A stretch of DNA of 64,000 nucleotides. Source: Acidimicrobiales bacterium. Lineage in GTDB: Bacteria > Actinomycetota > Acidimicrobiia > Acidimicrobiales > CATQHL01. This document shows positions 5,149-8,070 of this stretch, piece after piece. Under the pieces are notes generated by a model that worked only from the letters and a program-made list of their open reading frames with translations, made no database searches and was not told where the DNA came from. Both the position numbers and the translations under genes were made by a program. The first letter of the stretch is position 1; each line of letters opens with the position of its first letter. Location of the stretch: NCBI GenBank assembly GCA_965242895.1, contig OZ251507.1, positions 2,592,286 through 2,656,285 of the forward strand, written 5' to 3'.

Positions 5149-8070
5149 ATGACTTTCGGGCAGCAGCTGATTGAGGATCGTTGTTTCCTTATTGGCGGAG
5201 GCGCAAAGGAACCCTCAATGAGCACCTATAGGCGGAAGCTGATTGAGGTGGCGTTGCCGCTGGCTGCGATCAACAAGGCGTCGGCGCGGGAGAAGTCGAT
5301 CCGCCATGGGCATCCGTCGACGCTGCATCTGTGGTGGGCTCGGCGTCCGCTGGCGGCTTGTCGGGCGGTGTTGTGGGCTTCGCTGGTGGATGACCCGTCG
5401 GCCCGCCCGGATGAGTTTCCGACCGAAGAGGCTCAGACCGCCGAACGCGAGCGTTTGTTCGAGATTTTGGAGGAACTCGTCGTTTGGGAGAACAGCAACA
5501 ATTCCGACGTGCTGACCGCGGCTAGGGCAGAGATTGAACGTTGTTTCCCGGGCGGTGCGCCGGCGGTGCTTGACCCGTTCGCCGGCGGTGGCTCCATTCC
5601 GTTGGAGGCTCAGCGTCTGGGGCTCAAGGCTTTCGCGGGAGATTTGAATCCGGTCGCTGTCTTAATCAATAAGGGGATGGTGGAAATCCCGCCCCGTTTT
5701 GCGGGTCAACCTCCTGTGCATCCAGATGTAAGAAGAAGTCTTAGTACATGGAGCCGGGCGCAAGGTCTAGCTGCCGACGTAAAGGCTTACGGGGCGTGGA
5801 TGCGGGATGAGGCCAAGCGCCGGATCGGTCACCTTTACCCAAGCGCCGTTGGCCCTAATGGGGAAGAGTTGACGCCGATTGCGTGGGTTTGGGCGAGAAC
5901 TGTCCGTTCCCCGGATCCGGCGTGGGGCGGACTTGTGCCGCTGGTTAAATCTTGGACGCTTCGCAGCGCCAGGAAGGGCAAGCCAGAGGTGTGGGTGGAG
6001 CCAGTGGTTGATCACACTACCCAAACCATCAACTACAGGGTTAACCATGGGCCAAAGAGGGTGGTGAGTTCCACTGGGGATTCCTCACCAAGGGCGTCCC
6101 AGAGAGAGAGAGAGAGAGAGAGAGAGAGAGAGAGAGAGAGAGGTAAGCCTTCGTCGCCTGTAATTAAGCGCGGCCACGGCACTTGTGTGGCAACCGGGGC
6201 GGCGATTCCTCTTAGTTACACAAAAGCTCAGTGGTGCGCGGAGGGCATGGGGTTTGATCTTTTGGCGGTAGTGGCGGAGGGGAACCGGAGCCGGCAGTAT
6301 TGTGAAGCTCGGTCAGTCGACCTCGAGGCCTGTCGGGCTGCTAGGGAGCTTGCAGCGGCTAGGTGGAAACCCGTAGGCAGGCTGCCTCCAGTGGGAAAGG
6401 GTTTGGGCTTCACGGTTCAGGCTTACGGCGTTGAGGAGTGGTGGCAGTTATTCACCGACCGTCAGTTGGTTGCGCTCACAACGTTTTCTGACTTACTGGG
6501 TGAGGTCCGTGAGAAAGTTTTTAATGACGCCAAAGCGGCCGGACTAGCAGACGACGGGGTTCGTTTGCGTCATGGAGGTGCGGGCGCTGTTGCGTATGCG
6601 GACGCTGTCGTGACCTACTTGGCTTTTGCGGTGGACAGATGTGTTGACAAGTGGTCTAACCTTGTTATCTGGAATTCTGTTGGGGAGAAGGTCGAACACG
6701 TTTTCGGGCGGCAGACGATTTCGATGGTGTGGGACTTTTGTGAAGGCAACCCGTTTTCGTCTTCGACTGGTAATTGGTTAGGGCAACTAGAGTGGGTATG
6801 CAGGGCGGTTGAGCGCTTTCCGGCGGTAGGTGATGCGGAAATTGAGCAGAAGAATGCTCAGGTAAGGACGCAAGAATCAGTCGGATGCATGATCTCAACA
6901 GACCCTCCTTATTACGACAATATTGGTTACGCCGATATTTCTGATTTCTTTTATGTGTGGCTGCGTCGTAATCTGGCAGATGTCTGGCTGGAGGAGTGCG
7001 CCACTCTCCTCACTCCTAAAGCATCTGAGATGATTGCGGATCCAAGCCGACATGAGAACAGGCAGGAAGCGAAAGAACACTTCGAGTCAGGGATGGCCGA
7101 GTTCATGGCTAAAGTTGAAGCATCGCAGCATCCTGATGTTCCTACCACTATCTACTACGCCTACAAGTCCACAGAGTCCTCAGAAGAAGGACAAGTGCAT
7201 TCGACAGGTTGGGACACATTTCTGCAAGCAGTAATCGATGCCGGTTTGCAAGTCACTGCTACTTGGCCATTACGTACGGAGCGTTCCGCTCGGTTACGTT
7301 CCATAGGCGCAAATGCCTTAGCGTCTTCGGTCGTTCTGGCTTGTCGTCCTCGCTCTAAGTCGGCTCCTCTTGCCACTCGGAGTGAGTTCATTGCTGCGCT
7401 TCGTGACGAACTCCCGCGGGCGATTAAAGTCTTGCAGTCCGGAAACATTGCTCCCGTCGACTTGCCGCAGTCCACAATCGGCCCCGGTATCAGTGTGTTT
7501 TCCCGTTACGCCAAGGTCGTGGAGGCAAATGGCAAGCCGATGAGGGTGCGCAACGCTTTGGCGGTCATCAACGAGGTGCTTGACGACGTCCTTCACGGGG
7601 AGGAGTCCGAGCTCGACGCTGAGACCCGCTTCGCTCTCGCCTGGTATGCGCAGCACGGCTTCGAGGCCGCCCCGTTCGGCGGAGCGGAGTCAATTGCGAA
7701 GGCCAAAAACACTGCGGTCGAAGGCGTGGTCAAAGCAGGGGTGGGGGTGTCCACGGGAGGTAAATTCCGCCTCTACGCCCGCCGCGAACTCGACGACGAC
7801 TGGGACCCGGACAGCGATTCCAGGCTGACCGCCTGGGAAGCTCTGCAGCATCTTGCGAAGCGGCTGAATGTCTCGGAATCTGAAGCAGCAAGACTGCTGG
7901 CGCGCCTGGGAGCCGTCGCCGACGGCGCTCGTCAACTCGCCTACCTCCTCTACAAAATCGCCAACGACAACCGCTGGGCCGAGGAAGCCGTCGTCTACAA
8001 CAACCTCATAACCGTCTGGCCGATACTGCAAACTTCCGCACCCAAGGTCGAGAAAACCCCAATGTTCTAG
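5149..8070 (+). CDS. DUF1156-family DNA methyltransferase, tandem paralogue 3 (carries the (AG)21 tract)
   Basis: Same signatures as paralogue 2, with intact TDPPYYDNIGYA. The alternative, more family-like start is ATG 5218 (MSTYRRKLIEVALPL). The in-frame segment 5149-5217 (MTFGQQLIED...) is another degenerate copy of the start region. Confidence 0.85.
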   Translation: MTFGQQLIEDRCFLIGGGAKEPSMSTYRRKLIEVALPLAAINKASAREKSIRHGHPSTLHLWWARRPLAACRAVLWASLVDDPSARPDEFPTEEAQTAERERLFEILEELVVWENSNNSDVLTAARAEIERCFPGGAPAVLDPFAGGGSIPLEAQRLGLKAFAGDLNPVAVLINKGMVEIPPRFAGQPPVHPDVRRSLSTWSRAQGLAADVKAYGAWMRDEAKRRIGHLYPSAVGPNGEELTPIAWVWARTVRSPDPAWGGLVPLVKSWTLRSARKGKPEVWVEPVVDHTTQTINYRVNHGPKRVVSSTGDSSPRASQRERERERERERERGKPSSPVIKRGHGTCVATGAAIPLSYTKAQWCAEGMGFDLLAVVAEGNRSRQYCEARSVDLEACRAARELAAARWKPVGRLPPVGKGLGFTVQAYGVEEWWQLFTDRQLVALTTFSDLLGEVREKVFNDAKAAGLADDGVRLRHGGAGAVAYADAVVTYLAFAVDRCVDKWSNLVIWNSVGEKVEHVFGRQTISMVWDFCEGNPFSSSTGNWLGQLEWVCRAVERFPAVGDAEIEQKNAQVRTQESVGCMISTDPPYYDNIGYADISDFFYVWLRRNLADVWLEECATLLTPKASEMIADPSRHENRQEAKEHFESGMAEFMAKVEASQHPDVPTTIYYAYKSTESSEEGQVHSTGWDTFLQAVIDAGLQVTATWPLRTERSARLRSIGANALASSVVLACRPRSKSAPLATRSEFIAALRDELPRAIKVLQSGNIAPVDLPQSTIGPGISVFSRYAKVVEANGKPMRVRNALAVINEVLDDVLHGEESELDAETRFALAWYAQHGFEAAPFGGAESIAKAKNTAVEGVVKAGVGVSTGGKFRLYARRELDDDWDPDSDSRLTAWEALQHLAKRLNVSESEAARLLARLGAVADGARQLAYLLYKIANDNRWAEEAVVYNNLITVWPILQTSAPKVEKTPMF
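6101..6142. repeat. (AG)21 dinucleotide microsatellite inside methyltransferase paralogue 3
   Basis: It is an uninterrupted 42-nt AG run read directly from the sequence. It is translated in frame as RERERERERERER within a ~28-aa insertion that paralogue 2 lacks. Confidence 0.95.

Follow-up and report, generated by a model that had tools for sequence, protein, structure and literature searches.

Does a long dinucleotide repeat inside the coding sequence of a defence-island methyltransferase switch that gene ON and OFF? This question is raised by a 64-kb stretch of DNA from an Acidimicrobiales bacterium (64,000 nucleotides at full length, called here the window), in which the third of three tandem hmaB paralogues (mutual identity 72-75%) contains a perfect and uninterrupted run of 21 AG units, (AG)21. 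The hmaB genes encode N6-adenine DNA methyltransferases of the Hma defence system. A first-pass annotation of the sequence had proposed a slipped-strand ON/OFF switch, and this proposal was strengthened by repeats at the same site in related genes, by near-identical poly-G alleles in ON and OFF frames, and by OFF copies that are otherwise intact. We therefore consider that the tract is probably a slippage-driven contingency locus of hmaB paralogue 3.

Position and reading frames of the tract

The features of hmaB paralogue 3 that bear on the question are the following.

5149 to 8070, plus strand: hmaB paralogue 3, DUF1156 N6-adenine DNA methyltransferase of 973 aa (Pfam DUF1156, 6.6e-31; PADLOC HmaB, 1031 bits)
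5572 to 5595, plus strand: motif I DPFAGGGS, S-adenosylmethionine (AdoMet) binding, residues 142-149, upstream of the tract (translation; invariant alignment columns)
6052 to 6159, plus strand: lineage-specific loop insertion, residues 302-337, PKRVVSSTGDSSPRASQ-(RE)6R-GKPSSP, in place of the canonical EGGEPTFE loop (alignments; AlphaFold2 model)
6101 to 6142, plus strand: (AG)21 dinucleotide tract, 42 nt, the proposed slippage site, in frame and encoding (Q)(RE)6R
6143 to 6171, plus strand: conserved right flank GTAAGCCTTCGTCGCCTGTAATTAAGCGC (sequence and truncated products; the same flank follows the tracts in scaffolds L161-L164)
6901 to 6912, plus strand: catalytic motif IV DPPY, residues 585-588, downstream of the tract and lost in the OFF frames (translation; alignment)

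The PADLOC HmaB model matched paralogue 3 over its full length (E=0), and an alternative start (ATG at 5218) would give a protein of 950 aa. As translated, the first AG of the tract completes a CAG (Gln) codon and the remainder reads (RE)6R, followed by GKPSSP, in agreement with the first-pass description of a perfect 42-nt AG run lying in frame within the open reading frame (ORF). When the number of units was changed in silico, 18, 21 and 24 units left the ORF open, and 19, 20, 22 or 23 units led to a stop at codons 331-338; the other lengths outside this series were truncated too. The out-of-frame products end in ...RERER or ...EVSLRRL, followed directly by the stop. Each alternative frame meets its own TAA just 3' of the tract, one at 6144-6146 and one at 6161-6163, so that both OFF frames terminate within 7 codons. 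Truncation by a unit change falls after motif I and before DPPY, so that the earlier prediction of a truncation upstream of motif IV stood, although the stops lie somewhat further on than the ~320 residues it had given. Under the proposed mechanism, slipped-strand mispairing at replication would add or remove AG units. With 18, 21 or 24 units HmaB paralogue 3 would be ON, the (RE)n stretch being tolerated in a surface loop, whereas the other lengths would turn it OFF, with loss of the rest of the recognition insert, DPPY and the C-terminal half.

Next, the sequence surroundings of the tract were analyzed. A 14-nt AG pattern was expected 0.01 times per dinucleotide-preserving shuffle of the window, and its real matches were confined to (AG)21, which was also the sole mono- to hexanucleotide microsatellite over the chosen thresholds in the 64 kb. 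The first-pass remark that no comparable tract was seen elsewhere in the window was thus correct. In the genome the tract is not unique, as a minimum of six further hmaB copies on the source contig have repeat-encoded runs at this site. The GC content around the tract was 56-58%, and that of the housekeeping half of the window was ~65%. No plausible antisense gene was found on the opposite strand across the tract, and a promoter and terminator scan of 1600-9900 gave no more sites than shuffled sequences. Splice-like GTAAG/GTGAGT sequences were considered as signs of an intron; this reading was dropped, because translation continues in frame through the insertion and the locus has the form of a typical bacterial defence operon.

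The tract encodes part of a loop that is unusual for the family. Between the conserved VWVEP and C(V)ATGAAIP segments, paralogue 3 has 60 aa and paralogue 2 has 31 aa, which bears out the ~28-aa insertion noted at first pass as absent from paralogue 2. This segment measured exactly 31 aa in 111 of 120 full-length homologues; all outliers except one belonged to the source genome or to genomes closely related to it, and repeat-encoded runs were present in most of the outliers. In an AlphaFold2 model (97 sequences, mean predicted local distance difference test score, pLDDT, of 75), the insertion, at pLDDT 55-68, was placed between confident strands 293-301 and 343-345, which belong to a confident (pLDDT ~90) beta-rich domain spanning approximately residues 230-430. 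The target-recognition insert of these methyltransferases has been placed between motifs I and IV (PMC12839542), and because of this report and of its position between the two motifs, the beta-rich domain was called the recognition insert. A sequence search of the PDB and a Foldseek search against the PDB returned nothing useful for naming the domain. In the predicted structure, the tract occupies a surface loop of the recognition insert.

Repeats at the same site in relatives

We then compared the loop site in three genomes (OZ241998.1, CATQHL01 and the source contig) and in four short metagenome scaffolds. The other hmaB copies of the source contig were read as proteins, so that repeats there are runs of encoded residues. 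More than 20 hmaB copies of the lineage carried uninterrupted repeats at the loop, namely (AG)15-21, (AC)15-16 and G9-G18, including those listed here.

OZ241998.1, L079: G18, in frame as assembled
OZ241998.1, L080, first copy: G18, in frame as assembled
OZ241998.1, L080, second copy: G14, in frame as assembled
OZ241998.1, L001: G17, broken as assembled
CATQHL01, L002, two copies: G15 and G14, both broken as assembled
CATQHL01, L006: G9, broken as assembled
Source contig, P0002 (paralogue 1): Gly6, in frame, just upstream of the window start
Source contig, P0010: Gly8, in frame
Source contig, P0249, P0256 and P0262: Gly runs followed by a stop, broken
Source contig, P0250: ERERERERER-GKPSSP and then shifted, broken
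Scaffold L162: (AC)16, same nucleotide position and same right flank
Scaffold L164: (AC)15, same nucleotide position and same right flank
Scaffold L161: (GA)15, same nucleotide position and same right flank
Scaffold L163: (AG)15, same nucleotide position and same right flank

The four scaffolds originate from three other metagenome samples, and in all four the tract is followed by the flank GGTA..CCTTCGTCGCCTGTAATTAAGCG. Around the site, L162 and L164 were 93% and 88% identical to paralogue 3, respectively, and L162 carries a paralogue-2-like gene upstream of its tract-bearing copy, indicating that L162 and L164 are orthologues in which the motif and the length of the repeat have changed. L161 and L163 are paralogous copies. 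The comparison of tract length among strains, which had been suggested at first pass, therefore spoke in favour of the switch. The conserved right flank was not found in viral contigs.

These data also bear on whether the tract is real. A chimeric or low-complexity insertion, introduced by assembly or sequencing and absent from the organism, was considered because the product of paralogue 3, in its 973-aa and 950-aa forms, had no match in a collection of 15 billion proteins that does contain its neighbours and four other hmaB fragments of the source contig; besides, GA-rich repeats are difficult for some sequencing platforms. Look-ups of exact products were negative for paralogue 3 and also for further proteins of the source contig. 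A protein search centred on the tract returned distant fragments only, and Logan contig L078, which is 91% identical to 7331-12563 of the window, ends short of the tract. However, the tract lies in frame within a 973-aa ORF, the four independent scaffolds have dinucleotide tracts at the corresponding site, each followed by the same right flank, and P0250, a second copy on the source contig, encodes the same type of run before GKPSSP. We accordingly regard an artefact as extremely improbable.

Closely related alleles were compared within clusters defined at >=90% identity. The family ...NYRVNYGL-Gn-SSSCGSFKP... existed in four states that differed solely in the length of the poly-G run: two in frame, with five and with four Gly, and one in each of the shifted frames. 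A second family showed a difference of exactly one Gly, and in a repeat-free family the loop site was invariant in all four members. The in-frame alleles with four or five Gly raise another explanation, in which (RE)n, Gly(n) or (HT)n would be a linker of variable length that adjusts target specificity, likened to the changes in repeat number that alter spacer length in Type I HsdS. The location of the tract inside the recognition insert, between two confident strands of the model, would suit such tuning, as would the divergence of the paralogues, which is greatest around the loop-bearing domain. Nevertheless, with a unit of 1 or 2 nt, two out of three length changes shift the frame, whereas selection on loop length should favour a unit of 3 nt, and most of the observed copies are out of frame. 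Loop tuning as the explanation of the tract is thus very unlikely in our view, although it could coexist with ON/OFF switching.

The integrity of the OFF copies was then assessed. OFF copies assembled to the stop codon (L161, L163, two in L002, L006 and L001) regained a full-length ORF after the gain or loss of one unit in six of six cases. The restored ORFs had 933-1051 codons, except for L006, where reading started within the gene and gave 848 codons. The repeat is therefore the only lesion of these six copies. L162 and L164, which are partial, likewise became open to the contig end after a change of one unit, and every frame break found in the hmaB copies of relatives coincided with a repeat.

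The specificity of the pattern was assessed by a repeat census (homopolymers of >=9 nt or dinucleotides of >=6 units). In 215 kb from the three genomes, 18 repeats were counted, and 11 of them lay inside hmaB genes, whose share of the bases is 22.5%; eight were at the loop site and three at the GGG codons of motif I. Five further repeats were located 55-420 nt from an hmaB copy. Outside the lineage, 80 hmaB loci from JGI metagenomes (818 kb) had no repeat in hmaB, and 77 GTDB loci of other lineages had no hmaB-internal run except a C11 in L054, at another position. None of these 157 loci carried a repeat such as those at the loop site. Taken with the alleles, the comparison supports the tract being one instance of a putative lineage-wide gating of several hmaB paralogues at the same loop.

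Repeats elsewhere in or near hmaB were also recorded. The C11 of L054 (10341-10351, a Chloroflexi metagenome-assembled genome, MAG) encodes Pro codons just before motif I and breaks the frame as assembled; it is the only hmaB-internal repeat found outside the Acidimicrobiales group. The GGG codons of motif I form G10-G13 runs in L002 (10366-10376), L003 (7372-7384) and L006 (10366-10375), with a fourth Gly added in frame in L003 and a frame change coinciding with the run in L006. Poly-C or poly-G tracts of 10-17 nt were found 55-420 nt upstream of hmaB in L001 (2200-2216 and 2293-2305), L080 (9662-9675 and 9686-9695) and L006 (3256-3270), several of them preceded by a recurring ...TTAG motif; these could be promoter or 5'-untranslated-region repeats that add transcriptional switching. 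In L079, an intergenic G14 (8818-8831) flanked by a 26-nt direct repeat precedes an hmaB copy by ~1.1 kb. In a second variable loop of these HmaB proteins, only in-frame insertions or minisatellites were seen. In the relative L005 (10565-10786), that loop of HmaB P0007 contains a 48-nt minisatellite in 4.5 copies encoding GGEQGGALGGERGGER, and since 48 is divisible by 3, changes in copy number there would stay in frame.

The same data allow a neutral explanation to be weighed, in which the loop is unconstrained, repeats grow by mutational bias, and OFF copies are young pseudogenes among redundant paralogues, so that the tract would be mutable without being an evolved switch. Large and redundant arrays would permit this, as L002 and L003 together contain seven tandem hmaB copies and the source contig encodes at least eight hmaB products. 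Moreover, HmaB was without effect, and thus dispensable, in the sole experimental Hma study (PMC11232893), which also weighs against the switch. Other points weigh in the same direction. Approximately 7 copies were in frame and more than 15 out of frame, a ratio near the 1:2 expected without selection for ON, so that neutral slippage is equally compatible with it; the dinucleotide copies of the short scaffolds were OFF in four of four. Tract lengths were compared between assembled copies of related genomes. The poly-G relatives are long-read MAGs with metaMDBG-style contig names, in which homopolymer length may be wrong; individual poly-G ON/OFF calls are thus provisional, whereas the existence and position of the tracts are firm. 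Finally, HmaA, the helicase-nuclease of the system, was not found in the window, which opens inside paralogue 1. By contrast, the neutral explanation does not account well for the recurrence of three repeat motifs at a single codon position in over 20 genes, with the second loop keeping its frame, for OFF copies that retain at least 600 open codons downstream of the tract and regain the frame by a change of one unit, for the TAA directly 3' of the tract in both alternative frames within a conserved flank, or for the lack of such repeats in the loci of other lineages. We consequently judge the neutral explanation unlikely, and the ON/OFF switch is preferred.

The Hma island around the gene

The remaining features of the hmaB locus in the window are given below.

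1 to 1754, plus strand: 3' part of hmaB paralogue 1, from residue ~330 (full protein P0002, 913 aa)
2108 to 4966, plus strand: hmaB paralogue 2, 952 aa, with no loop-site repeat and with DPPN as motif IV (identical to P0001)
8387 to 9622, plus strand: helix-turn-helix (HTH) and M78/IrrE-type peptidase gene, RmrA-like, between hmaB and hmaC (the same gene lies inside the hmaB array of L003)
9819 to 13205, plus strand: hmaC, HEPN-DUF499 AAA+ ATPase, partner of HmaB (Pfam HEPN_Swt1 and DUF499; PADLOC HmaC, 899 bits)

Downstream of the hmaB genes, the HTH/M78-peptidase gene and the HEPN-DUF499 ATPase gene are followed by a PDC-M19B gene and a ThsB-like TIR gene. The HTH/M78 gene is probably a regulator of the island. 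The defence island spans 1-32 kb at 42-58% GC and adjoins the housekeeping DNA. A single source contig of 2,781,752 bp is recorded as the origin of four of the products, namely those of hmaB paralogues 1 and 2, of the HTH gene and of hmaC. The closest relatives are uncultured Acidimicrobiales MAGs. Some related proteins bear 'Candidatus Poriferisodalis' names, which may hint at a sponge symbiont, whereas a literature search on the sample and assembly accessions gave no result. In the syntenic loci L001 and L002, HmaA, an SNF2 helicase-nuclease, is encoded ahead of the hmaB genes. The CATQHL01 array consists of hmaA, five hmaB, the HTH/M78 gene, two more hmaB, hmaC and a TIR gene.

From this gene content, the system is identified as Hma (HmaA-HmaB-HmaC), which has been renamed the type-1 DUF499-centred system related to bacteriophage exclusion (BREX) (PMC12839542). 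An anti-phage activity has been reported for the HmaA helicase-nuclease, and the role of HmaB was not settled (PMC11232893). The first-pass annotation had recognised a methyltransferase, which is correct, but its class is not that of a Type III mod, since the gene is the DUF1156-type hmaB of Hma. A Type III Mod/Res assignment was at odds with the profile searches, in which the HmaB models scored best, generic methyltransferase matches were weak, and no Res-like gene was found among the scanned ORFs. Similarly, BREX proper was not supported, as no PglZ or BrxC was found among the 17 large ORFs scanned and the ATPase is of the DUF499/HmaC type.

Some properties of paralogue 2 and of the island were recorded in their own right. 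Near 3830, paralogue 2 has DPPN instead of DPPY at the catalytic motif IV, and it may therefore be inactive. It is the only hmaB copy of the source contig with a readable loop that has no repeat there, and it has its own 24-aa Arg/Gly/Ser-rich insertion in the second loop (after residue ~193). A 65-nt tandem repeat in 2.3 copies extends across its start (2014-2161). On the minus strand, 14488-17913, 21857-25234 and 26350-29718 encode three proteins of ~1120-1140 aa without Pfam matches, in the low-GC (42-50%) part of the island adjoining the PDC-M19B and ThsB-like TIR genes; one of them was also scanned by PADLOC and gave no match. They may be uncharacterised defence genes. Lastly, the ~65% GC part of the window (32000-64000) is unusually rich in short tandem repeats with periods of 6-96 nt, for example at 36263-36659 on the minus strand within a ZnuA-like gene.

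Relation to known switches and meaning for Hma

We compared the locus with known repeat-gated methyltransferases. The closest parallel is the MmyCI Type III mod gene of Mycoplasma mycoides subsp. capri, where (AG)10 and (AG)12 alleles with an adjacent TAA were reported and the in-frame clone was active (PMC3498834). Both are AG tracts inside the coding sequence of an N6-adenine methyltransferase, with TAA right after the repeat when out of frame. However, MmyCI is a single Type III Mod gene with a Res, in a low-GC host-adapted pathogen and with 10-12 units, whereas the present gene is a DUF1156 hmaB of an Hma/BREX-related system, has 21 units and many paralogues, and belongs to an uncultured Acidimicrobiales-like genome of higher GC content. 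The second parallel is the G-tract phase variation of pglX in the Pgl system (type 2 BREX) of Streptomyces coelicolor (Sumby & Smith 2003, as cited in PMC4365076 and PMC9122589). According to the account in PMC4365076, the Streptomyces tract switches at a frequency of 1e-2 to 1e-4, and PglX toxicity can likewise be suppressed by changes in the tract. As far as these accounts go, this is likewise an actinobacterial defence methyltransferase of the BREX superfamily switched by repeat length in its coding sequence; it differs in being one gene with a homopolymer, in a system with PglZ and PglW, and in that switching was measured experimentally. By contrast, the hmaB case comprises paralogue arrays with dinucleotide and homopolymer tracts at one conserved loop, as read from sequence.

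Phasevarions are based on repeat-gated Type III mod and Type I hsdM/hsdS genes (PMC5909438, PMC7383803), and several independent phase-variable methyltransferases may occur per strain (PMC10123105, PMC6265453). The hmaB arrays resemble them in having simple repeats in methyltransferase genes, and would share with them random ON/OFF changes and several independent switches per genome. They differ in that phasevarions are defined by methylation-dependent regulons in host-adapted pathogens, with another enzyme family and system. A phasevarion, that is, an epigenetic regulon, was without support here, the locus can be explained without any regulatory role, and the defence-island context argues for a defence role instead. 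As for Hma itself, the window encodes HmaB and the HEPN-fused DUF499 HmaC, and HmaA adjoins them in syntenic relatives. Yet the described systems have one methyltransferase, whereas the window has three in tandem, a relative has seven, and the source contig encodes eight or more.

No mention of repeats, phase variation or tandem methyltransferase arrays was found in PMC11232893 or PMC12839542, and full-text literature searches gave no report of repeat-gated methyltransferases in Hma or DUF499-centred BREX-related systems. A 2026 survey of DUF499-centred BREX-related systems across thousands of taxa does not mention them. The mechanism is of a known kind and is new for Hma/BREX-related systems and for Acidimicrobiia, and the architecture of many paralogues gated at a single site by three repeat motifs is a distinct variant. 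Repeat-gated methyltransferases are textbook matter for the Type I and Type III systems of host-adapted pathogens, with one BREX case in Streptomyces.

In the mechanism that we propose, an array of hmaB paralogues would be served by one HmaA helicase-nuclease and one HmaC ATPase, as in the syntenic relatives. As each repeat-bearing copy could switch independently, cells of one population would differ in their active HmaB set and presumably in their active DNA motifs. The rate of switching and the effect on methylation are inferred, and the benefit may be varied defence specificity, relief of self-toxicity, both, or none. Mycobacterial NucS repair leaves indels uncorrected (PMC7015689); if MutSL is absent from this genome as from other Actinomycetota, which taxonomy suggests, such tracts would be especially unstable, and the NucS point is relevant only in that case. 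A broader reading, which we put forward tentatively and hold to be somewhat less probable than not, is that each genome keeps a library of at least 7-8 HmaB specificity methyltransferases, some of them encoded in tandem arrays, each repeat-gated at the conserved loop and feeding a single HmaA/HmaC, with the site maintained by selection as a stochastic generator of repertoires. As signs of such maintenance we took the presence of a stop in each alternative frame and the exchange of repeat motifs (AG, AC and G) at the site. If this is true, the cells of a population would form a mosaic in which defence and methylation specificities differ. The naturally occurring ON and OFF alleles could be exploited directly, and long reads with kinetics could link the state of a tract to methylated motifs per molecule. 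These independently gated paralogue arrays suggest that HmaB is the exchangeable specificity subunit of Hma.

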